Positions 1,459-62,910 are shown, counted from the first letter of the stretch. The stretch: 62,910 bases of DNA from Thermoplasmatota archaeon (GCA_041581335.1 JBFIDG010000001.1:1-62910), one strand, 5' to 3'. The notes: generated by a model not told the origin, from the letters alone. Numbers and translations: made by a program.

Positions 1459-3048
1459 ATGCCGAGACTGGACGCCCTGCACGGGGCCCAGACCGAGAGC
1501 GAAGACCTGGCCGCCGCCGACCGGGTCTTGACCGTGGAGGCCTTGGCCGTGTTGGAGGAGGTCCACCGACGCTTCGAAGCACGGCGCCAGGAAGTGCTGG
1601 CGCTGCGGCCCGCCCGGCGTCGACGGTTGGCGGCCGGAGGTGGCTGGCCAGCAGAGACCCAGGCCATCCGGGACGGCGACTGGAAGGTCGCACCGATCCC
1701 GGCCGCCCTCCAGGACCGTCGCGTCGAGATCACAGGACCCGTCGACCGCAAGATGATGATCAACGCCCTCAACTCCGGCGCCAAGGTCTTCATGGCCGAC
1801 TTCGAAGACAGCCACAGCCCCGTCTGGGCCAACACCTTGGCGGGCCAGGTCAACATCATGGACGCCGTGCGCGGCACGCTTTCGCTGACCACGCCGGACA
1901 AGGAATACCGCGTCGGCCCCGACCCGGCGTTGCTACTGGTGCGCGTCCGCGGCTGGCACCTGGACGAGGCGGGCCTGGCCATCGATGGCAAGCCGATCTC
2001 CGCAAGCCTGTTCGATGCGACGCTCACCGTGTTCCACAACGCCAAGGAGCAGCTGGCCCGCGGGGTCGGGCCCTACCTGTACCTGCCGAAGCTGGAAGGC
2101 CGCGAGGAGGCCAGGCTGTGGGCGGACGTCCTAGGCCACATCGAGAAGGCCGTCGGGATCCCGGCCGGATCCATCAAGGTCACCGTGCTCATCGAGACCC
2201 TCCCCGCGGCGTTCGAGATGGAAGAGATCCTGCACGAGCTGCGGGACCACATCGTGGCCCTCAACGCCGGGCGCTGGGACTACATCTTCAGCGCCATCAA
2301 GGTCTTCGCCGAGGACCCGACGCGGGTCCTGCCCGACCGCTCCCAGGTCACGATGCACGCCCCCTTCATGCGAGCGTATGCCCAACGCCTTGTCGAGGTC
2401 TGTCACCGCCGTGGCGCCTTGGCGATGGGGGGCATGAGCGCGTTCATCCCGAACCGCCGCCGATCTGACGTCACGGAGGCCGCACTGGCCGCGGTGCGCG
2501 CCGATAAGGAGCGGGAAGTGGCAGACGGCTGCGACGGCACATGGGTGGCGCACCCGGACCTTGTCCCGGTCGCCATGGAGATCTTCGATGCCGCCTTGGG
2601 TGAGGCCCGCAATCAGGTCGGACGCCAGACCACGCCCCAGGTGACGCCTGAACAGTTCGTCGACCTGCACATCCCGGATGGCCACGTGACCCGGGCCGGT
2701 ATCGACACCAACATCGAGGTGACGCTGCGCTACCTGGCGGCATGGTTGTCCGGCGTCGGTGCCGTGGCGATCCACGACCTGATGGAGGACGCGGCGACCG
2801 CAGAGATCAGCCGTTGCCAATTGTGGCAATGGCGCTACCACGGGGTCACGACGACGGAGGGCGAACGCGTCGATGCATCGATGCTGAAAGCAGGCATCCG
2901 GCGACACGCACGCGCCCTGCGCGCCGAGTCTCCGCAGGCCCCGGTGACGGCCGCAGCCAGGCTCCTCGAACGGGCGGTCCTGGCCTGGCCGATCCCGGAC
3001 TTCCTCATCCTTTCCGCTTACAAGACGCTACAGGAGTCTACGACATGA
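1459..3048 (+). CDS. aceB: Malate synthase A, copy 1
   Basis: Malate synthase A blocks are present: [76 protein letters not shown] 1459 was chosen because the upstream part of ORF 22..3048 is antisense to the LVIVD gene. Confidence 0.9.
1686..1813 (+). repeat. 128-nt tract identical to 4979..5106 (inside aceB copy 1)
   Basis: A direct read of both copies shows identity from GGTCGCACCGATCCC to GAAGACAGCC. The flanking sequence is only about 75-85% identical. Confidence 0.9.
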
Positions 3049-4568
3049 ACATCGAAGCCAAGATCCAAGCCGAAGCCGACGCCCTGCAACGTGAATGGTC
3101 CCGGGACCTTCGGTGGCAAGGGGTGCGACGAGACTACTCCGCCGAGGAGGTAGTGCGGCTGCGCGGGAGCATCCAGTTCGATCACCCCTTGGCCCGCCAC
3201 GGCGCAGAACGCCTGTGGAATCTCCTCAACGGCGGCGGTGGAGACAACTACATCAACGCCCTGGGGGCGGTGTCCGGCAACCAGGCGATGCAGATGGTCC
3301 GTGCTGGATTGAAGGCGATCTACCTATCCGGCTGGCAGGTCGCGGCGGACGGCAATCTCTCGGAGACGATGTATCCAGACCAGAGCCTGTACCCTGTGAA
3401 TTCGGTGCCCGCCATGGTGCGGCGTATCAACAACTGCTTGCGCCGCGCGGACCAGATCGAGTGGGCTGAGGGGGACGTGAGCCGGGATTGGTTCGTCCCG
3501 ATTGTAGCCGACGCGGAGGCCGGTTTCGGCGGCCCGCTCAACGCCTTCGAACTGATGAAGGACATGATCGAGGCAGGGGCCGCCGCGGTGCATTTCGAGG
3601 ACCAGCTGGCCTCGGAGAAGAAGTGCGGCCACCTGGGGGGCAAGGTCCTGGTCCCCACGAGCCATGCCATCCGGCAACTCAAAGCGGCCCGCCTGGCGGC
3701 AGACGTCAAAGGTGTTCCGACGGTCCTTGTCGCCCGCACGGATGCCCGCGCGGCGACGCTGCTCACGAGCGATGTCGACCCCATCGACCACGCACACATC
3801 ACCGGCGAACGCACGCCGGAAGGCTACCTGCGGATCAAGGCGGGCCTGGACCATGCCATCGCACGGGCCCTGGCGTACGCGCCATACGCCGATGTGCTGT
3901 GGTGCGAGACAGGGACGCCTGATCTGGCCGAGGCGAAGCAGTTCGCCGCCGCGATCCACGCCAAGTTCCCCGGCAAGCTCCTGGCATACAATTGCAGTCC
4001 GAGCTTCAACTGGAAGCAACATCACAGCGACGCCAGCATCGCCGCGTTCCAGGACGAGCTGGGTAAGATGGGGTACCGTTTCCAGTTCATCACCCTGGCC
4101 GGGTTCCACGCGATCAACCACGCCATGTTCCAATTGGCCCAGGGCTACAAGCGCGAACAGATGACCGCGTACGTGCGCTTGCAGGAGGCGGAGTTCGCGG
4201 CCGAGAGCCAGGGCTATACGGCGACCAAGCACCAGCGGGAGGTCGGCACCGGCTACTTCGATGAGGTGTATCGGGCGATCAGTGGCGGCACGAGCAGCAC
4301 GCTGGCGATGGAGGGAAGCACGGAGGCCGAGCAGTTCGCCGCTCCCGCGCTGAAGACCAACGGCCATGTCGCGACAGAGGTATCGAACGGGGCCCGGCCT
4401 GCGCGACCAGGCGCCACGAACGGCAAGAAGGTGGGCAATGGCCATGCCAAGAACGGCCGCAACGGCCACGGGACGGACGGTCATCCTCGCGCCCCGGGCG
4501 AAGACGCGCAGAACGGGGTCCAGCCCGTCGGGTCCGCCGGCGCCGCACAGAAGCGCGACGGCCATTGA
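3045..4568 (+). CDS. aceA: Isocitrate lyase, copy 1, with an Asn/Gly/His-rich C-terminal tail
   Basis: ICL blocks [24 protein letters not shown], catalytic [10 protein letters not shown] and VARTDA are present. Its ATG overlaps the aceB stop (ATGA at 3045-3048). About 70 extra C-terminal residues are absent from copy 2. Confidence 0.9.
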
Positions 4569-4650
4569 CGCGGCCAGGACGGGCATATCCGTTTGTGCCA
4601 AGGAAGCGGCGCCAGGCCCGGCCCTGTCCAGGGGTCCGCCTCCTGTTGGC

Positions 4651-4713
4651 CACCCCTGCACTTCCGATGCAGCTCGAAAAGGTGAACATGTTCGTGTGCC
4701 ATTCGTAAATGTC
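4651..4713 (+). promoter_or_regulatory. Conserved intergenic module, copy A: ORB-like half-site plus GAACATGTTC palindrome element
   Basis: 4651 CACCCCTGCACTTCCGATGCAG; 4683 TGAACATGTTCGTGTGCCATTCGTAAATGTC. It lies 40-100 nt upstream of the aceB copy 2 start. Confidence 0.5.
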
Positions 4714-4715
4714 CG

Positions 4716-4731
4716 ATAGTTTCAAGATATG
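4716..4731 (+). promoter_or_regulatory. Possible TATA-like box for a leaderless aceB copy 2 transcript
   Basis: The A/T-rich string ATAGTTTCAAGATATG is centred about 25-30 nt before ATG 4752, in otherwise GC-rich DNA. Confidence 0.3.
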
Positions 4732-4751
4732 GTCTCCTGCTGTCGTCCTGA

Positions 4752-6347
4752 ATGGAGACCCTCGTGCCCCCCGGCCTCACGCTGGCCACCCCCATCTTGG
4801 ACGGCACCGACGTGCTGAGTCCCGAAGCCCTGGCCTTCGTCGCGGAGCTGTCACGCCGATTCGACGGACGCCGCCGTGGACTGCTCGACGCCAGGCAGGC
4901 ACGGCAGATCGCCTACGATGCCGGCGAGACGCCTGATTTCCTCGCGGACACCTCACACATCCGTGCCGACGACTGGACGGTCGCACCGATCCCGGCCGCC
5001 CTCCAGGACCGTCGCGTCGAGATCACAGGACCCGTCGACCGCAAGATGATGATCAACGCCCTCAACTCCGGCGCCAAGGTCTTCATGGCCGACTTCGAAG
5101 ACAGCCTCAGCCCGACCTGGGCCAACCTCGTGGCCGGCCACCAGAACGTCTACGACGCCACGCGTGGCCGCCTCACCTACGCCCATCCGACCAAGGGCAC
5201 CTACCGGGTCGAGGACGACCCCGCCCAGATGATCTTACGGCCACGCGGCTGGCACCTCGACGAAGCCCACGTGCACGTCGATGGCCACCCAGTCAGTGCG
5301 AGTCTCTTCGACTTCGGCATCTCGTTCTTCCACAACGCCGCCGCCTTGCACGACCAAGGACGCGGCCCCTTCTACTACCTCCCCAAGCTCGAACACCACG
5401 ACGAAGCAAGACTCTGGGACGACGTCTTCCGCCACGCCCAGGACGCCATCGGCCTACCCCCGGGGACCATCAAGGCCACCGTCCTCATCGAGACCCTCCC
5501 CGCCGCCTTCCAGATGGACGAGATCCTGTTCGCGCTCAAAGACCACATCGTCGGCCTGAACGCCGGCCGCTGGGACTACATCTTCAGTTGCATCAAGACC
5601 CTGCGCCGCCACCCCGACAAGACATTGCCCGACCGCGGCCAGGTCACCATGGGCGTGCCCCACATGCGCGCCTACACGCAGCTGCTGATCCAGACGTGCC
5701 ACCGTCGCGGCGCCTTCGCCATGGGTGGCATGAGCGCCTTCATCCCGGACCGGGCCGACCCCGTGCGCACCGAGAACGCCCTGGCCCAAGTCCGCGCGGA
5801 CAAGCAGCGGGAAGCCGCCGACGGCTGTGACGGCACATGGGTCGCCCACCCAGGCCTCGTGCAGGTGGCGATGGAGATCTTCGACGCCGCATTGGCCGGC
5901 GCACCCAACCAACTGCATCGCCCACCCACCACCATCAAGGTGACGGCGGCAGACCTCCTCGACTTCGCGGTCCCCGACGGCCGCACCACCCACGCAGGCG
6001 TCGCCCAGAACGTCGACGTCGGCCTGCGCTACCTCGTCGCGTGGCTCTCCGGCGACGGCGCCGCAGCCATCCACGGACTGATGGAGGATGCCGCCACCGC
6101 AGAGATCAGCCGCAGCCAGCTGTGGCAGTGGACCCAGCACAAGGTGCAGCTCGAAGACGGGCGGCCCGTCACCAAAGCCCTCGTCGCCGACCTGATCACC
6201 GCCACCGCTGCACGGCTGTCCCACGAGGCCCCCGAAGCGCCCGTCGAGACGGCAGCCCAGTTGCTCGCCGACGTCGCATTGGGCGACGCCTTCCCCCCGT
6301 TCCTGACCATCCCCGCCTACGCCACCCTCCAGGAGACCCCCGCATGA
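4752..6347 (+). CDS. aceB: Malate synthase A, copy 2
   Basis: 531-aa paralogue of 1459..3048 with the same conserved blocks. It shares a 128-nt identical tract with copy 1. Confidence 0.9.
4979..5106 (+). repeat. 128-nt tract identical to 1686..1813 (inside aceB copy 2)
   Basis: Same observation. The antisense ORFs 1387..1815 and 4953..5186 in the track share an identical 42-aa string, which confirms it. Confidence 0.9.
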
Positions 6348-7672
6348 ACATCGAAGCCGATATCCAAGCCCAAGCCGACCGACTGCAGCAGGAATGGGAG
6401 ACCCACCCCCGGTGGGCGCACGTGCAACGCGACCACTCCGCCGAAGAGGTCGTGCGCCTGCGCGGCAGTCTGCAGTTCGACTACCCGGTGGCCCGCCACG
6501 GGGCCCAGCGACTCTGGTCGCTCCTGAACGAGGACGAATACATCAACGCCCTCGGCGCCCTCACGGGGAACCAGGCGATGCAGATGGTCCGCGCCGGATT
6601 GAAGGCGATCTACCTATCCGGCTGGCAGGTCGCCGCCGATGCCAACCTGGCCGAACAGATGTACCCCGACCAGAGCCTGTACCCCGTCAACTCCGTGCCG
6701 GCCGTCATCCGACGCATCAACAACACGTTGCGTCGTGCGGACCAGATCGAATGGTCCGAGGGCAACGTGACCCGCGATTGGTTCGTCCCGATCGTCGCCG
6801 ACGCCGAAGCCGGTTTCGGCGGCCCCCTCAACGCGTTCGAGCTGATGAAGAGCATGATCGAAGCGGGCGCGGCCGGCGTGCACTGGGAAGACCAACTCGC
6901 GTCGGAGAAGAAATGTGGTCACCTGGGCGGCAAGGTACTGGTGCCGACCAGCCACCATATCCGCACACTCAAGGCGGCCCGCCTGGCGGCCGATGTCATG
7001 GGTGTCCCGTCATTGATCGTCGCCCGCACCGATGCCCGCGCCGCGACGCTGCTGACCAGCGACGTCGACCCCATCGACCACGCCCACATCACGGGGGAGC
7101 GCACGGCTGAAGGCTACCTGCGCGTGACGCCGGGACTCGAACACGCCATCGCCCGCGGACTCGCTTACGCACCCTATGCCGACCTGATCTGGTGTGAGAC
7201 CAGCACGCCCGACATGGAGGAGGCCCGCGCCTTCGCGGCAGCCATCCACGCCAAGTTCCCGGGCAAGATGCTGGCCTACAACTGCAGCCCCAGCTTCAAC
7301 TGGCGCCAGCACCTGGACGACGACCAGATCGCCCGCTTCCAGACGGAGCTCGGCAAGATGGGCTACAAGTTCCAGTTCATCACGCTCGCCGGGTTCCATG
7401 CCCTGAACGAGTCCATGTTCACGTTGGCCAAGGCGTACGCGAAGGAAGGCATGACCGCCTACGTGCGCTTGCAGGAATCGGAGTTCGCGGCGGAGGCCGA
7501 TGGCTACACCGCCACCAAACACCAACGCGAGGTCGGCACGGGGTACTTCGACGAGGTCTACCGGGCCATCAGTGGTGGCACCAGCAGCACGCTTGCGATG
7601 GAAGGCAGCACCGAGGCCGAACAGTTCAGTACCCCGATCGCGAAGGTCCCGGACCCGAAGAAGACCGGTTGA
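6344..7672 (+). CDS. aceA: Isocitrate lyase, copy 2
   Basis: 442-aa paralogue of 3045..4568 with [22 protein letters not shown] and VARTDA. It has the same ATGA start/stop overlap with the upstream aceB. Confidence 0.9.
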
Positions 7673-56979: not shown

Positions 56980-57528
56980 GTGGACAAGGCCGCCCTGCGC
57001 ACCGAACTCCGCGGCCGCCTCGCCGCGATGAAGACGCTCGTGCGTGCCCAAGAGGAGGATCTGGTGAACGCGGCCATCGTCAGCGACGAAGATTGGCGCG
57101 AAGCGCAGACGGTCCTCGTCTTCAAGGCGGTCCGAACCGAGCTGTCGGTCGTGTCGGCCACGAACGCGGCCTTCCGGGCAGGCAAACGGGTCTGCTTTCC
57201 CCGCGTCGCCCCGGGCGATGTCTTGACGCTGCACGAGGTCTCCGACTGGTCGCAGTTGACGCCCGGCGCGTATGGCATCCCGGAACCATCGGCCGATGCG
57301 CCTCTCGTGACGCCCATGGTCGTCGACGTGGCGCTGGTCCCGGGTCTTGGCTTCACTGCCACCGGCGCTCGCTTGGGCCAAGGTGGGGGGTTCTACGACA
57401 AACTGCTACCGATGCTCGGCGGCGTGTCGTGGGGGGTCGGCTTCTCGCAGCAACTGCTGGACGTCTTGCCTGCCGAGCCGCATGATCGGCCCGTGGATCG
57501 GGTCATCACGCCGTTGACGCTTCAGTAG
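56980..57528 (+). CDS. 5-formyltetrahydrofolate cyclo-ligase
   Basis: Contains GAYGIPEP, VPGLGFTATGARLGQGGGFYD and EPHDRPVD. GTG start. Confidence 0.8.
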   Translation: MDKAALRTELRGRLAAMKTLVRAQEEDLVNAAIVSDEDWREAQTVLVFKAVRTELSVVSATNAAFRAGKRVCFPRVAPGDVLTLHEVSDWSQLTPGAYGIPEPSADAPLVTPMVVDVALVPGLGFTATGARLGQGGGFYDKLLPMLGGVSWGVGFSQQLLDVLPAEPHDRPVDRVITPLTLQ

Positions 57529-58049
57529 ACGATGTTGATGACGACGTGATAGTCGGCGAGGGCGCGGGGCACTTCGGCGCTTAGCGTGTAGTCTCCGACG
57601 GGCAGGCTGGCTTCATCGATGAGGACGCGGGGTCCTGCGGAGACGATGCCGCCGTTCACGTTGACCGCGATGCCGCCGTTGCTGCAGGTCCCGGCGCTCC
57701 TCTTGAGGGGGCCGTCGAGTTTGATGCAGCCTGGGTTTTGCACGACGCTGACGTCGCCGCCGTCGTGGCCTTCGATGGTGAACCGGATGGTCGTGACGTT
57801 GGCGCCGGGGTGCACGGAGAAGCTCCACGAAAGATCGATGCCCTCCGTGACGGGGTCGCGTTCGTCGATGGTGACGTTCTCCTTGGGGCCGGTCGGGCCG
57901 GCGCTGCAGTCGCGGGTGACGCCGTTCTGGGTCACAGAGCAGCTGCTGGTCGTGGTCTTCGTCACCGTCGGGCCCTCGTCGTAGCTGACCTGGACGGCGC
58001 AGCCGGACAGGGTGATCATGGCGATGGAGAGGATGGTGATCAGGCGCAT
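57522..58049 (-). CDS. Secreted lipoprotein, unknown function
   Basis: MRLITILSIAMITLSGCA has a lipobox. The 175-aa protein is Thr/Ser-rich and beta-type. Confidence 0.5.
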   Translation of the reverse strand: MRLITILSIAMITLSGCAVQVSYDEGPTVTKTTTSSCSVTQNGVTRDCSAGPTGPKENVTIDERDPVTEGIDLSWSFSVHPGANVTTIRFTIEGHDGGDVSVVQNPGCIKLDGPLKRSAGTCSNGGIAVNVNGGIVSAGPRVLIDEASLPVGDYTLSAEVPRALADYHVVINIVY

Positions 58050-58088
58050 GGGTGACGACTTACGACCCGACTATATCCGTATTCTGGG

Positions 58089-58173
58089 CACCCCTTCGTT
58101 GCGATCCCTGGGCGGGCCTGGACAGCCTCAACAGGAGGGGCATGAACATGTTCGTATGCCATTTGAACTGTCA
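58089..58173 (+). promoter_or_regulatory. Conserved intergenic module, copy B
   Basis: 58089 CACCCCTTCGTTGCGATCC; 58143 TGAACATGTTCGTATGCCATTTGAACTGTC. The second element matches copy A at about 27 of 31 positions with one indel. Confidence 0.5.
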
Positions 58174-58269
58174 ACCATCGACGATGGCGGCTGTCTGCAA
58201 CTTCACCGAACGCCGACATCTGGCAAAAGCAACTTATCTAGGTGCTAAATCTCAAGCGACCTGGTCACG

Positions 58270-58407
58270 ATGCAGCCCCATCCTCTACACGTGCTTCTGC
58301 ACCAACAGGTCGGCCTCGACTCCTTCGCCATCGACGGCGACGAGACCCTCGTCATCGACCCATGGACGGATCGCCCACTGCGTGCCCGTTCCCCCGCCGC
58401 GCCATAA
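58270..58407 (+). pseudogene. 45-codon ORF resembling the N-terminus of an MBL-fold hydrolase (possible gene remnant)
   Basis: MQPHPLHVLLHQQVGLDSFAIDGDETLVIDPWTDRP.. resembles the start of the intact MBL hydrolase at 61487 (MATLTWLGHAGFLIESEGRSLAIDAWLDGP). GC3-rich. Not in the supplied track. Confidence 0.3.
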
Positions 58408-58485
58408 GGCACGCCCGAAGCCCCTTGCTTAAGGCGGACCTGCGCGTCCGTAGGCTACGCACGGCGTCGCCGGGCGACCGAATCC

Positions 58486-60171
58486 ATGTGTGGCATCGCA
58501 GGCATCCTTGGTCGTGACGACCCCGCACTCGTCCGGCAGATGGCCGACCTCCTCGTCCACCGCGGACCCGACGGCGAAGGGGTCTGGAGCGACGACAACG
58601 TCACCCTCGGCCACCGCCGCTTGAGCATCGTCGACCTGGAAGGCGGCGCCCAACCCATGGAGAGCCACGACGGGCGCTACTGCATCGTGTACAACGGCGA
58701 AGTCTACAACCACGCCGCCGTCCGCGCCAAACTGGCCGCACAGGGCGCCACGTTCCGCACAGACCACTCCGACACCGAGACCATCCTCGAAGGCTACCGT
58801 CGCTGGGGCCCCGACGTCGTGACCCACCTCGAAGGCATGTTCGCCTTCGCCCTCTGGGACACACAAGAACGCAGCCTCTTCATCGCCCGGGATCCGTTCG
58901 GCATCAAGCCGTTCTACTACGCCTGCGCCGACGGCGAGATGGTCTTCGCCAGCGAACAGAAAGCCCTGTTCGCCCACCCTGCTATCGACGCGGTCCCGAA
59001 CCTCGACCGGTTGCGCGAACGGGCCACCTTGGAATTCCTCACCGGTCAAGCCACCCTGTTTGCCGGAATCCACCAGCTTCCGCCCGGCACATGGGCGCTG
59101 TTGCGACCAGACGAACCGGACTTCTGCCGCGTCCTGTGGCAACCTTACTACCACGTCCCCGTCGAACGCTACGCGACGGTCGAAGAAGCGGCCCACGTCA
59201 TCAAGGACCGCTTCGTCGCCTCCGTGCAAGAGCAGCTCATGGCGGACGTGCCTCTTGGCGTCATCCTGAGCGGCGGGTTCGACTCCGCCGTCGTCGCCAC
59301 CGCGCACCAGAAGTTCCTCTCAGACACCCCCATCCACACCTACACGATCGCCGAGTCCGAAGAGGTGGCCGACTTCCAGGCCGCCCGCCGGCTCGCCGAC
59401 CATCTGGGCACCGACCACCACGAGGCCTTCTTCGAGTTCGAAGACGTGCTGCGGGACCTACCCCGCTACACGTACCACAACGAGAACATCAACTACACCG
59501 AGTTCTTCTTCCTGCCACTGTTCGAACGCATGGCCAAGGACGTCAAGGTCGGCCTATGCGGCCAAGGCAGCGACGAACTATGGGGTGGCTATGATCGTTA
59601 CAAGGACCCGCTGGCTTTGGCCAAGGAACGCATCACGCGCATCCGCCGTGCAGCCCCCGCTCACGAAGACGAACTCGCCACATTGGTCAATCTGACCCAC
59701 ATGAGCGGTCAGAGCCTGGCCGAATGGGACCAGCAAGGCCAACTCAACAACTTCCAACTCCGCCTCGTCGACCGCAACTCCATGGCCAGCAGCCTCGAGG
59801 TGCGCGTGCCGTTCCTGAGCCGCCCCCTGCACGCCGCCAGCCGCGCCGTGCCATGGGGCTGGAAGATGGGTGGCCCCACTGGCGGCGACCACGCCGGCAT
59901 GGAGAAATGGATCCTGCGCAAGGCCCTGGAAGAGCTCGGCATGCCCGATGACCTGACCTGGCGCAAGAAGGTCCCCGCTGGCCGCGCCACGGGCCCCCGC
60001 GTCATGGACCAGTTCGAATCACACTGCGCCAAGCTGGTCGACCCCAAGGCCATGGCAGCGCACCCCCTCGGCGGCGCCTTCCAACGGCCCGCCGAATTCT
60101 TGGTCTACCGCCTTTGGGACGAGATCTTTGTCCAAGGCCACCGGACCCCTACATTGGAGGAACTCTGTTGA
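58486..60171 (+). CDS. Asparagine synthase (glutamine-hydrolysing) family amidotransferase
   Basis: N-terminal nucleophile MCGIAG (Ntn GATase II), PP-loop VILSGGFDSAVVA, and an AsnB-type C-terminal domain. Confidence 0.85.
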   Translation: MCGIAGILGRDDPALVRQMADLLVHRGPDGEGVWSDDNVTLGHRRLSIVDLEGGAQPMESHDGRYCIVYNGEVYNHAAVRAKLAAQGATFRTDHSDTETILEGYRRWGPDVVTHLEGMFAFALWDTQERSLFIARDPFGIKPFYYACADGEMVFASEQKALFAHPAIDAVPNLDRLRERATLEFLTGQATLFAGIHQLPPGTWALLRPDEPDFCRVLWQPYYHVPVERYATVEEAAHVIKDRFVASVQEQLMADVPLGVILSGGFDSAVVATAHQKFLSDTPIHTYTIAESEEVADFQAARRLADHLGTDHHEAFFEFEDVLRDLPRYTYHNENINYTEFFFLPLFERMAKDVKVGLCGQGSDELWGGYDRYKDPLALAKERITRIRRAAPAHEDELATLVNLTHMSGQSLAEWDQQGQLNNFQLRLVDRNSMASSLEVRVPFLSRPLHAASRAVPWGWKMGGPTGGDHAGMEKWILRKALEELGMPDDLTWRKKVPAGRATGPRVMDQFESHCAKLVDPKAMAAHPLGGAFQRPAEFLVYRLWDEIFVQGHRTPTLEELC

Positions 60172-61451
60172 ACCAAACCCAAGGCGCCCTTGAGGGCCTC
60201 GACCGCATCCTCGTCGACGCCACCGACCGCATCGAAGACCTGCTCGCCTATCACCGCAACCAGGTCCTCTGTCCGGTCTACACGAGCGTCGACATCCGAC
60301 GCAACCGCCACAAGGCCGCCGTCGTCGACGCCAACGCTTTCCCCGCCGGTTTCAACAACCTCAGCAAGCGCAGCTACACGCAGGCCACGGAGGCGGTGGG
60401 GAGCTACATGGGCAAGGTCTACCCAGGCGCGGAGGAACTGTTGCTGTTGGCGGAGAACCACACCCGCAACAAGTGGTACTTCCAGAACCTCCTGACACTA
60501 CGGGATCTGTTCAGCAGCGCCGGCTACCACGTCACCGTCGGCACCATGGCGGAGGAACTCTTCCCGCAGTCCACCGTCGAGACCGCGCTCGGGGACAAGC
60601 TCGAAGTGCACGGCGTCATCCGCGAGGGCGACGCGCTGATCGCCGATGGTACTGTGCACGACGTGGTCATCCTCAACAACGACCTGTCTGGGGGCACCCC
60701 CGATATCCTCGACGGGCTCAGTCAACCCATCACGCCGCCGCCGGCGATGGGCTGGCACCGCCGCCGCAAGTCGGAGCACTTCCGCATCGTCTGCGAACTG
60801 AGTCGCCAACTGGGCGACTACGTGGGCTTCGACCCGTGGCTGATCAGCGCCGAGTTCGACCGCGCCGACGGCGTGGATTTCAAGGACCGCGACACCCTGG
60901 ATGCCGTCGCCACCAAGATCGATGCGGTGCTCGACAAGGTCCGCGCGAAGTACGATGAATACGGTGTCGACCGCGAGCCCCACGTCTTCGTGAAGGCCGA
61001 CGCCGGCACCTATGGTATGGGGGTCATGGACACCACCAGTGGCGATGATTTCCTACGCCTCAACAGCAAGGGCCGCGAGAAGATGGCCAAAGGAAAAGAG
61101 GGGGTCAAGACGACCTCACTCATCATCCAGGAAGGCGTGCACACAGGCATCCGCAGCAGTGGCGCCGTCGCCGAGCCCGTCATGTACATGGTCTGCGGCA
61201 GCGTCGTGGGCGGCTTCAACCGCATCCACAAGGACAAGTCCGACACCCAGAGCCTCAACTCGCCTGGCAGCACCTTCGAGCCCATGGCGTTCAGCACCCA
61301 GATGCAGAGCGCGGCAGGGCCCGACGAGGTCGTCATGGACGACGTCAGCCGCCACGTCTACCAGGTGCTCGGCGAGATCGCCAGCATCGCCACCGGCTAC
61401 GAACACAAGCTCGCGGCGACCCCTGGCGCGGCGTTACCCACGTATCCGTAG
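60168..61451 (+). CDS. GshA-type (Acidithiobacillus ferrooxidans family) ATP-grasp glutamate--cysteine-ligase-like enzyme
   Basis: YTSVDIRRNRHKAAVVDANAFPAGFNNL and VFVKADAGTYGMGV match my recollection of the rare GshA family (Pfam GshA / TIGR gshA_ferroox). TTG 60168 overlaps the asnB-like stop. An upstream ATG at 60114 is an alternative. Confidence 0.55.
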   Translation: MNQTQGALEGLDRILVDATDRIEDLLAYHRNQVLCPVYTSVDIRRNRHKAAVVDANAFPAGFNNLSKRSYTQATEAVGSYMGKVYPGAEELLLLAENHTRNKWYFQNLLTLRDLFSSAGYHVTVGTMAEELFPQSTVETALGDKLEVHGVIREGDALIADGTVHDVVILNNDLSGGTPDILDGLSQPITPPPAMGWHRRRKSEHFRIVCELSRQLGDYVGFDPWLISAEFDRADGVDFKDRDTLDAVATKIDAVLDKVRAKYDEYGVDREPHVFVKADAGTYGMGVMDTTSGDDFLRLNSKGREKMAKGKEGVKTTSLIIQEGVHTGIRSSGAVAEPVMYMVCGSVVGGFNRIHKDKSDTQSLNSPGSTFEPMAFSTQMQSAAGPDEVVMDDVSRHVYQVLGEIASIATGYEHKLAATPGAALPTYP

Positions 61452-61486
61452 CAGCCCTTTTTGTCGCAGGGGCTCTATCAAGGTCC

Positions 61487-62191
61487 ATGGCGACGTTGAC
61501 CTGGCTTGGACACGCAGGGTTCCTGATCGAATCGGAGGGCCGATCCTTGGCCATCGATGCATGGCTCGACGGCCCGACCTTCCCGGGCACCGACCTGAGC
61601 GACGTCGACGTCGTCGCGGTGACCCATGGCCACTTCGACCACGCCCAGAACGCGCCCGCCATCTGCAACGCCAATGGCGCCACGTTGGTCTGCATGCATG
61701 AGATCAAGTTCTGGGCCCTGCAACACGGCGTCCCCGAAGACAAGGTCGTCTCGATGAACATCGGCGGCACCGTCGAAGCAGGCGGCTTCAAGCTCACCAT
61801 GGTCCCGGCCATCCATAGCGGCGGGTGCCCCGGAGACGACGGACAGATCGTCTCAGGTGGTGCGGCGGCCGGCTTCGTCATCACCTGCCCCGACGGCGAC
61901 GTCATCTACCATGCGGGAGACACCGCCGCCTTCGGCGACATGGCCCTCCTGGCCGAGATGTTCCCCTTCAAGCTGGCGCTGTTGCCCGTCGGCGGCCACT
62001 TCACCATGGACCCGGCCGGCGCGGCGAAGGCCATCGAACTCCTGGGGGCCAAGCATGTGGTCCCGATGCACTTCGGCACGTTCCCGATCCTGGCCGGCAC
62101 CCCTGCCGAGCTCGAGGGCCTCGTGGGCCATGACGTGCACGTCCATGCGCTGCGCCCAGGCGATCTGTTCGATATGGCCAGCCTGGCTTAG
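61487..62191 (+). CDS. MBL-fold metal-dependent hydrolase (UPF0173 family)
   Basis: MATLTWLGHAGFLIE, VTHGHFDH, and the C-terminal H/D ligands VPMHFGTF. Confidence 0.8.
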   Translation: MATLTWLGHAGFLIESEGRSLAIDAWLDGPTFPGTDLSDVDVVAVTHGHFDHAQNAPAICNANGATLVCMHEIKFWALQHGVPEDKVVSMNIGGTVEAGGFKLTMVPAIHSGGCPGDDGQIVSGGAAAGFVITCPDGDVIYHAGDTAAFGDMALLAEMFPFKLALLPVGGHFTMDPAGAAKAIELLGAKHVVPMHFGTFPILAGTPAELEGLVGHDVHVHALRPGDLFDMASLA

Positions 62192-62910
62192 AGCACGCCG
62201 ACGAAGGCGACCTGATCGACCATCAGGGCGATGAGCAGGAAGCCCAGGTACTGGATGGTCCAAAGGAAGAACGTCCGGTACGCCTTGGGGCTCGGGTGGA
62301 TCTCCAGTTTGGCGGCCCGGAAGACCAGCAGGAAGCCGAGCACCAGGCCGGCGATCATGTAGATGAAGCCCGCATCGGCGAAGGGGTACACCAACGAGAT
62401 ACTGGCGATGACCGTCAGGACCGAGTAGATGAGGATCTGGCGGCGGGTGCCGTGCTCACCGATGACGTTGGGCATCATCGGGTAGTCGGCCGCAGCGTAG
62501 TCGTGCTTGTACAACAAGGCCAGGGCCCAGAAGTGGGCCGGAGTCCAGAGGAAGACGAGCGAAGCGATGATGATGGCGGGCCATGCCAGGCCGCCGGTCA
62601 CGGCAGACCAGCCGATGACGGCCGGGAAGCTGCCGGCGAGGCCGCCGATGACGATGTTCTGGGGCGTCGTCGGCTTGAGCCAGACCGTGTAGACGATAAC
62701 GTAGTATGCGATGGCGCCGGCGGTGAGCAGTGCCGCGAGCCATGCGCCGATCAGCAGCAGGCTGCCGATGGACAGCAGCGACATGGTCGTGGCGTAGGCG
62801 ATGGCGCTGCTGGGGGCCATGCGGCCGGAGGCGAGCGGGCGCTTGGCGGTGCGGCCCATGCGGCGGTCGCGGTCGATCTCGATGACGTTGTTGAAGGCGC
62901 CACTGGCGGC
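62188..62910 (-). CDS. ctaB: Protoheme IX farnesyltransferase (heme O synthase), 5' end beyond the window
   Basis: UbiA-type motifs NNVIEIDRDRRMGRTAKRPL and WTPAHFWALAL. The reading frame stays open to the window edge. Confidence 0.85.
   Translation of the reverse strand, partial: AASGAFNNVIEIDRDRRMGRTAKRPLASGRMAPSSAIAYATTMSLLSIGSLLLIGAWLAALLTAGAIAYYVIVYTVWLKPTTPQNIVIGGLAGSFPAVIGWSAVTGGLAWPAIIIASLVFLWTPAHFWALALLYKHDYAAADYPMMPNVIGEHGTRRQILIYSVLTVIASISLVYPFADAGFIYMIAGLVLGFLLVFRAAKLEIHPSPKAYRTFFLWTIQYLGFLLIALMVDQVAFVGVL

Follow-up and report, generated by a model that had tools for sequence, protein, structure and literature searches.

A 62,910-nucleotide (nt) stretch of DNA from a Thermoplasmatota archaeon (GCA_041581335.1, JBFIDG010000001.1:1-62910), analysed here as a whole and referred to as the window, carries near its end two overlapping genes, asnB and gshA, whose pairing is real and old. 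The first encodes a glutamine-dependent amidotransferase related to asparagine synthetase B, and the second a glutamate-cysteine ligase of the ATP-grasp family PF08886. The genome from which the window comes, as contig 1, measures 2.2 Mb in 269 contigs and is 91% complete; its nearest public relatives are metagenome-assembled genomes of Thermoplasmatota. The reading we favour, to which we give about an even chance of being correct, is that the two genes are co-expressed and serve independent chemistries. GshA would make gamma-glutamylcysteine (gamma-Glu-Cys), which would act as a terminal thiol and as a precursor of ergothioneine, and AsnB would be an autonomous amidotransferase, probably an asparagine synthase.

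A conserved asnB-gshA pair

The TGA stop codon of asnB overlaps the in-frame TTG start codon of gshA at position 60168 by 4 nt (cTGTTGAac, within CTGTTGAAC). A stop/start overlap is possible at 34 of 40 distinct junctions (29 of the 4-nt NTGA type and five of 1 nt), those of Marine Group II included. The pairing was surveyed across the phylum in an evenly drawn sample of 401 Thermoplasmatota genomes. PF08886 proteins are encoded in 82 of them, and in 81 of the 82 an Asn_synthase-family gene lies on the same strand no more than 1.5 kb upstream. The lone exception (G007) retains both genes on different contigs; the flanks of the split pair are uninformative. Among relatives, the AsnB orthologue is located directly upstream of GshA in every locus that is long enough, down to order-level relatives with 36–39% identity in GshA, and the same pair is found on contigs of more distant Thermoplasmata and on a contig of Poseidoniaceae (Marine Group II).

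The genes that surround the pair vary. In Marine Group II they are MeaB and a membrane protein; other Thermoplasmata have Dph6-like and glutaredoxin-like genes in these places, and the window has a lipoprotein gene and MTHFS. Since the flanking genes change from lineage to lineage, general synteny is not enough to account for the two genes staying together. A first-pass annotation, made from the sequence of the window, had taken the coupling of the two genes to be meaningful, and the neighbourhood survey bears this out: the AsnB linkage is conserved across the Thermoplasmatota, and in bacteria PF08886 genes are followed by gshB instead (gshA-gshB operons). Literature searches for PF08886 and for the pair in Thermoplasmatota returned no description of an asnB-gshA pairing.

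The GshA protein scores 441 bits on the PF08886 profile (cut-off 25) and 405.9 bits on TIGR02049 (cut-off 293.9), and it matches the sequence of the structural-genomics entry PDB id 3K1T with an E-value of 1e-91. Its AlphaFold model, built on a 33-sequence alignment, has a mean predicted local distance difference test score (pLDDT) of 91 and a predicted template modelling score (pTM) of 0.91, and superimposes on 3K1T with a template modelling score (TM) of 0.88 and an E-value of 2e-40. The structures that rank after it are glutathione synthetase, glutathionylspermidine synthetase, YgiC/YjfC and D-Ala-D-Ala ligase (Ddl). As the model matches 3K1T and then other ATP-grasp folds, the ATP-grasp label is correct, and the proposal that this open reading frame (ORF) encodes a member of the glutamate-cysteine ligase family of the Acidithiobacillus ferrooxidans type is confirmed by both profiles and by the fold. 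The gene is present in a single copy in the genome, and gene callers assign the same length of 427 amino acids (aa) to the GshA of a 93%-identical relative (P0001). The family had also been described as rare and mostly proteobacterial. It is not very rare: clustering its members at 50% identity gives 1134 groups and at 90% identity at least 7990, with a large archaeal clade among them.

Across 33 archaeal and bacterial PF08886 sequences 45 columns are invariant. Of the 122 columns with at least 95% conservation among bacterial members, the archaeal clade has the identical residue at 64, which include most of the polar ones, a pattern that fits catalysis of the same reaction by both groups. Bacterial gshA-gshB operons (3K1T is from Methylobacillus flagellatus) share with the archaeal pair a ligase of one family, with 38–45% identity and the same fold; there too, the ligase opens a small-thiol pathway and its gene overlaps or abuts that of a partner. 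In the archaea this partner lies upstream and encodes an AsnB-family amidotransferase, where bacteria have a glutathione synthetase gene downstream. The archaeal clade is also set apart from the bacterial enzymes by fixed substitutions (P52V, T55A, L57A, V315T and R403E).

The AsnB protein begins with MCGIAG, which places the expected cysteine at position 2, and carries the PP-loop SGGFDS. It scores 417 bits on TIGR01536 (cut-off 267) and matches PF00733, GATase_7 and GATase_6. ORF calls and profile searches with PF08886, TIGR02049 and Asn_synthase uphold both family assignments of the first-pass annotation, along with everything else that it stated at the sequence level about asnB, gshA and the metallo-beta-lactamase-fold (MBL) hydrolase gene that follows them. 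AsnB has the same two-domain architecture as E. coli asparagine synthetase B (AS-B, PDB id 1CT9), to which it was aligned with glutaminase and aspartyl-contact residues taken from published lists (PMC4659947). All glutaminase residues of the E. coli enzyme are kept (C1, R49, L50, I52, V53, N74, G75, E76 and D98), as are the SGGxD motif and residues G347, D351, E352, Y357 and K449. With its glutaminase residues, PP-loop and ATP contacts conserved, AsnB should be able to hydrolyse glutamine and to adenylate a carboxylate.

Probable thiol setting of the ligase

A search of the window's genome with PF02955 did not find a gshB of the bacterial type; a glutathione synthetase of the eukaryotic type was not searched for. 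The four PF02955 matches in the genome are two RimK homologues (451 and 293 bits on PRK10446), one LysX and one weak match (27.9 bits) inside an ORF of about 900 aa. On TIGR01380 the RimK and LysX matches reach only 22–58 bits against a cut-off of 299. The genome contains no GCS2-type ligase, and GshA is its only candidate for a gamma-Glu-Cys ligase.

In at least seven loci belonging to three lineages, a small gene (69–81 aa) with a GST_N_3 or Glutaredoxin match is located immediately upstream of asnB, so that a grx-asnB-gshA triad is formed. The motifs of these glutaredoxin-like proteins are CPYC, CHEC or CFES, with acidic residues next to the active site (AECHEC, AECFES). The genus to which the window belongs has no such upstream gene. 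The presence of glutaredoxin-like genes beside asnB points to a thiol function for the operon. As a separate observation, the triads of L040, L054 and L055 are preceded by a repeatedly seen group of further enzymes that form or cleave amides, namely a divergent NAD synthase, a CN_hydrolase and a homologue of the Dph6-like diphthine-ammonia ligase (PF01902). Dph6-like ORFs are also found upstream of asnB in L006, L007, L009, L014, L015 and L017.

Outside the window, on another contig of the same genome, lies an egtB-egtD-egtC cluster (C3:1117-4227, minus strand), in which the egtB and egtD genes overlap (C3:1916-4227). EgtB scores 376.5 bits (cut-off 360) and EgtD 379.1 bits (cut-off 290.9). 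In the mycobacterial ergothioneine pathway (EgtA-EgtE), gamma-Glu-Cys is the substrate of EgtB, and the glutamate is removed by EgtC (PMC7278568). EgtB, EgtD and an EgtC-like amidohydrolase are clustered here, and a genuine EgtC would imply gamma-Glu-Cys as sulfur donor, hence the need for a gamma-Glu-Cys ligase (PMC7278568). Unlike in mycobacteria, EgtA, a member of the GCS2 family, is absent, and the PF08886 ligase encoded beside asnB would fill its role. Because the cluster would need gamma-Glu-Cys, contains no egtA and has no other ligase candidate to draw on, GshA is the likely supplier of gamma-Glu-Cys for ergothioneine. Within the order, among the 41 nearest genomes, 19 encode both GshA and EgtD, three GshA only, two EgtD only and 17 neither.

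In this genome gamma-Glu-Cys is therefore likely to serve ergothioneine synthesis, and GshA is a plausible gamma-Glu-Cys source for an archaeal ergothioneine pathway. As of a 2020 review, ergothioneine had not been detected in archaea (PMC7278568). The possibility that AsnB substitutes for EgtC was considered and rejected, as the egt cluster has an EgtC-like gene of its own.

A further parallel is found in haloarchaea, which have a GCS2-type GshA (HVO_1668) and no GshB (PMC7278568). Here again, an aerobic archaeon possesses a glutamate-cysteine ligase and no glutathione synthetase was found, so that gamma-Glu-Cys is likely the terminal thiol. The haloarchaeal ligase is of the GCS2 type, unlike the ATP-grasp PF08886 ligase described here. 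The survey of archaeal GshA in the 2020 review used only IPR006334 and IPR006336, so the PF08886 family was not covered (PMC7278568). Taking into account its homology to the bacterial enzymes and its co-occurrence with egtBDC, GshA is best described as an ATP-grasp glutamate-cysteine ligase that probably makes gamma-Glu-Cys. Of the products suggested in the first-pass annotation, a thiol of the gamma-Glu-Cys type fits best with the lack of gshB and of a GCS2-type ligase, the glutaredoxin-like neighbours and the egtBDC cluster. The ATP-grasp GshA led by AsnB in Marine Group II and its relatives thus provides candidate genes for the redox buffer of uncultured planktonic and sediment Thermoplasmatota. 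Marine Group II archaea, which carry the pair, are globally abundant.

Readings of the asnB-gshA link

In the reading that we favour, GshA would form gamma-Glu-Cys from glutamate and cysteine. The product would remain an end-product thiol rather than be converted to glutathione, given that no gshB was found, and it could be used by glutaredoxin-like proteins. It would also be the sulfur-donor substrate of the EgtB/EgtD/EgtC pathway encoded on the other contig. AsnB would be a catalytically competent glutamine-dependent amidotransferase whose function is independent of the GshA product. The two genes would be co-expressed through their stop/start overlap and presumably co-transcribed, and the MBL hydrolase gene would be a recent genus-level insertion downstream that is unrelated to the pair.

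The strongest argument for the independence of AsnB comes from a single clade of Marine Group II. In 14 sampled genomes of four genera (1.4–1.6 Mb), which form one clade in the AsnB tree, gshA has been lost and the orthologous AsnB kept (loci L056-L059, L063 and L065-L073; genomes G107, G117, G189, G233, G268, G311, G323, G326, G353, G355, G393, G396, G402 and G410). The gene was removed cleanly, in one loss event, with the surrounding synteny otherwise unchanged. The 33 paired AsnBs agree without exception at 83 sites, of which 82 are unchanged in this clade, and at a 90% threshold 102 of 103 are. The lone change is F342W, and control clades show 0 or 1 change; a functional shift of AsnB after the loss of gshA was rejected on these grounds. 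No GCS2 substitute ligase is present in the ten genomes of the clade that were searched for one, and the replacement of PF08886 by a GCS2 ligase was likewise rejected, with no PF04107 match in 20 genomes searched. As AsnB is kept essentially unchanged without gshA, it is neither dedicated to nor dependent on the GshA product, and the clade argues against a dedicated pathway of ligation followed by amidation.

Asparagine synthesis is the most likely function of AsnB, on circumstantial support. It is the simplest assignment because AsnB is the only full AsnB homologue in the window's genome, asparaginyl-tRNA synthetase (AsnRS) is present there and in all relatives, no GatB scores above the cut-off in 41 genomes and the window's genome has no AsnA-like paralogue of AsnRS. 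The GatB result also led to the rejection of tRNA-dependent asparagine synthesis, which would make AsnB dispensable. Some relatives (G007, G013, G017, G018, G021, G025-G028, G034 and G039) carry AsnRS paralogues that are truncated and have no anticodon-binding domain, as in archaeal AsnA-like asparagine synthetases.

Several observations weigh against the reading of independent chemistries. It leaves unaccounted for an overlap that is kept across lineages at about 35% identity while the flanks shift, and GshA without AsnB occurs in none of the 82 genomes that encode it. The conserved overlap and the constant company of AsnB wherever GshA occurs argue for some functional tie. In AsnB, the aspartyl contacts known from E. 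coli AS-B are changed throughout the clade (S346C, E348Q, K376R, D384Q and R387L), the TTIR loop of the E. coli enzyme is replaced by a clade-invariant HNENINYTEFF, and the C-terminal region is shorter. The aspartyl-contact replacements are suggestive and not decisive as to the substrate. Asparagine synthesis is also dispensable in the group, as several to many relatives have AsnRS and no recognisable asparagine synthase. On the side of GshA, the EgtC-like protein, which starts with MCRH and is encoded directly after egtD, has TIGR03442 as its only match, at 189.5 bits and so below the cut-off of 218.65. In the phylum sample, all 69 Marine Group II genomes that carry the pair lack EgtD, a further departure from the mycobacterial arrangement, and 31 genomes of other families encode EgtD without PF08886. 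The link between EgtD and GshA thus breaks down across the phylum, and ergothioneine is therefore not the general reason for the module.

The functional tie would be explained by a two-step pathway, which we consider possible, if unlikely. GshA would make gamma-Glu-Cys, and AsnB would adenylate one of its carboxylates and transfer glutamine-derived ammonia to it. The resulting amidated gamma-glutamyl thiol, gamma-Glu-Cys-amide or isoGln-Cys, would be a glycine-free analogue of glutathione or of glutathione amide. The conserved pairing with its stop/start overlap and the absence of any GshA without AsnB speak for such a pathway, as do the position of AsnB in the partner slot held by gshB in bacteria and of asnB between two thiol genes in the grx-asnB-gshA triads. 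The pattern of substitutions in AsnB, with aspartate contacts of E. coli AS-B replaced and ATP and glutaminase residues kept, is consistent with it as well.

There are precedents for such chemistry. In the synthesis of the osmolyte N-acetylglutaminylglutamine amide (NAGGN), AsnO amidates a dipeptide. Glutathione amide exists in Chromatiaceae (PMC7278568, PMC8877833). The NAGGN operon (AsnO, the GNAT/ATP-grasp protein Ngg and a peptidase) likewise places an AsnB-family amidotransferase beside an ATP-grasp ligase that forms a dipeptide. Unlike AsnO, the AsnB described here scores 282 bits on TIGR03104 against a cut-off of 570; the adjacent ligase is GshA and not Ngg (TIGR03103), and there is no peptidase. 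The analogy to NAGGN drawn in the first-pass annotation therefore fails as a statement of membership.

The two-step pathway is a prediction from sequence alone, and it conflicts with the gshA-less Marine Group II clade, which retains a nearly unchanged AsnB and in which no substitute ligase was found. Furthermore, AsnB scores as an ordinary member of TIGR01536, and unrelated AsnB paralogues of the phylum also lack D384 and R387 in this alignment, which is gapped in that region, so that the substitutions are not specific to the clade. The proposal of a 'ligate, then amidate' pathway is weakened by the gshA-less clade. To fit that clade, AsnB would have to be bifunctional and support both asparagine synthesis and thiol amidation. 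Some bacterial AsnB homologues are reportedly bifunctional.

An extended version of this pathway would have AsnB and GshA act together, possibly as a complex, to produce a glycine-free amidated gamma-Glu-Cys thiol that replaces glutathione in Thermoplasmatota, Marine Group II included, with a bifunctional AsnB that also makes asparagine. We regard it as doubtful. The conserved stop/start overlap may be a sign of a new thiol or of an enzyme complex of this kind; if the link is one of co-expression only, the pair amounts to an ordinary refinement of annotation.

The reverse order of steps is improbable. AsnB would act first, and a GshA-like ligase would then join glutamate to the AsnB product or to another non-cysteine amine, giving a non-thiol gamma-glutamyl amide such as an osmolyte. 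Such an order would explain why GshA needs AsnB and not the converse. The presence of GshA is nested within that of AsnB, and the archaeal GshA has fixed differences from the bacterial enzymes near the VDxNxFPxGFNN motif and has lost the bacterial-invariant R300, R394 and R403. Most polar invariant residues are nonetheless common to the archaeal and the gshB-linked bacterial enzymes, glutaredoxin-like genes occur in the same operon in several lineages, and GshA co-occurs with an egtBDC cluster that requires gamma-Glu-Cys. To our knowledge, no compound of this kind has been described. A single pathway of asnB, gshA and the MBL hydrolase, with the latter acting on the product, is very improbable, since the same strand and the short gap that would favour it are seen only in the window and in the loci L003 and L023, and the MBL gene is missing from L004 of the same genus and from every other locus examined.

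Neighbouring genes and the upstream region

The features of the locus are listed in Table 1.

Table 1. Features of the asnB-gshA locus and glutaredoxin-like genes of related loci (window positions unless a locus is named)
Feature	Position	Strand	Evidence
asnB-like glutamine-dependent amidotransferase, 561 aa, first gene of the pair	58486..60171	+	TIGR01536, PF00733, GATase_7, GATase_6
gshA, PF08886-family ATP-grasp glutamate-cysteine ligase, 427 aa	60168..61451	+	PF08886, TIGR02049, PDB 3K1T
UPF0173 MBL hydrolase, 234 aa	61487..62191	+	PRK00685, Lactamase_B_2, Lactamase_B_3
Conserved 45-codon ORF in the gap upstream of asnB	58270..58407	+	conservation in L003 and L004
Palindrome-containing element TGAACATGTTCGTATGCCATT, core GAACATGTTC	58142..58163	none	invariant in the window, L003 and L004
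ctaB (heme O synthase), convergent downstream neighbour (context only)	62188..62910	-	NF003349, 264 bits (cut-off 246)
Putative lipoprotein gene, 175 aa, divergent (context only)	57522..58049	-	ORF without a family match in profile searches; conserved in L003 and L004
Glutaredoxin-like genes in grx-asnB-gshA triads	L009:4140-4343, L013:1901-2128, L014:4090-4317, L015:3952-4167, L040:4082-4327, L054:4764-5000, L055:4771-5001		

The MBL hydrolase gene starts 35 nt past the stop codon of gshA. Its product scores 219 bits on PRK00685/UPF0173 (cut-off 144) and matches Lactamase_B_2 and Lactamase_B_3. In L004 and in all other loci without it, gshA abuts ctaB or other genes, and most relatives that belong to the same family have ctaB in convergent orientation to gshA. 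The hydrolase is a lineage-specific passenger and not part of the conserved module; its assignment to the same operon and pathway, made when only the window was considered, does not extend beyond the window and these two relatives.

The gap upstream of asnB is 436 nt long (58050-58485). Both its length and the conserved palindrome that it was said to hold are confirmed. The palindrome is a perfect 10-nt one that begins at 58144, inside a 22-nt element that an alignment of the window with L003 and L004 shows to be invariant. It was recognised in this alignment; a repeat finder run at seed 6 and length 10 reported no inverted repeats in the gap.

The same gap contains a 45-codon ORF for which L003 and L004 have conserved counterparts. 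Compared with L004, substitutions fall preferentially at third codon positions (8/6/17 at the first, second and third positions), and nine codon changes are synonymous; the bias suggests a real small gene. It has no Pfam match. The idea that the gap holds a remnant of another MBL gene, and with it a hint of rearrangement or acquisition, is unsupported: a BLASTP comparison with the N-terminus of the intact MBL protein gives a non-significant E-value of 1.5, and the third-position bias is that of a coding sequence. A remnant of a glutaredoxin-like gene was rejected as well, with non-significant E-values of about 0.5–1 in hidden Markov model and BLASTP searches. Judging by its codon pattern, the ORF is more likely a small gene specific to the genus than a remnant.

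A near-identical second copy of the 22-nt element is located at 4682-4703, upstream of malate synthase, and the two copies have TGAACATGTTCGTRTGCCATT in common. The genome holds six exact copies of the palindrome core, and the 10-mer by itself shows no enrichment in the window (three found, 1.24 expected). The element may be an operator/promoter module or a putative transcription-factor binding site. The malate synthase gene is itself flanked by two isocitrate lyase paralogues, and the three genes form a glyoxylate-cycle cluster at 2742-7672 of the window.

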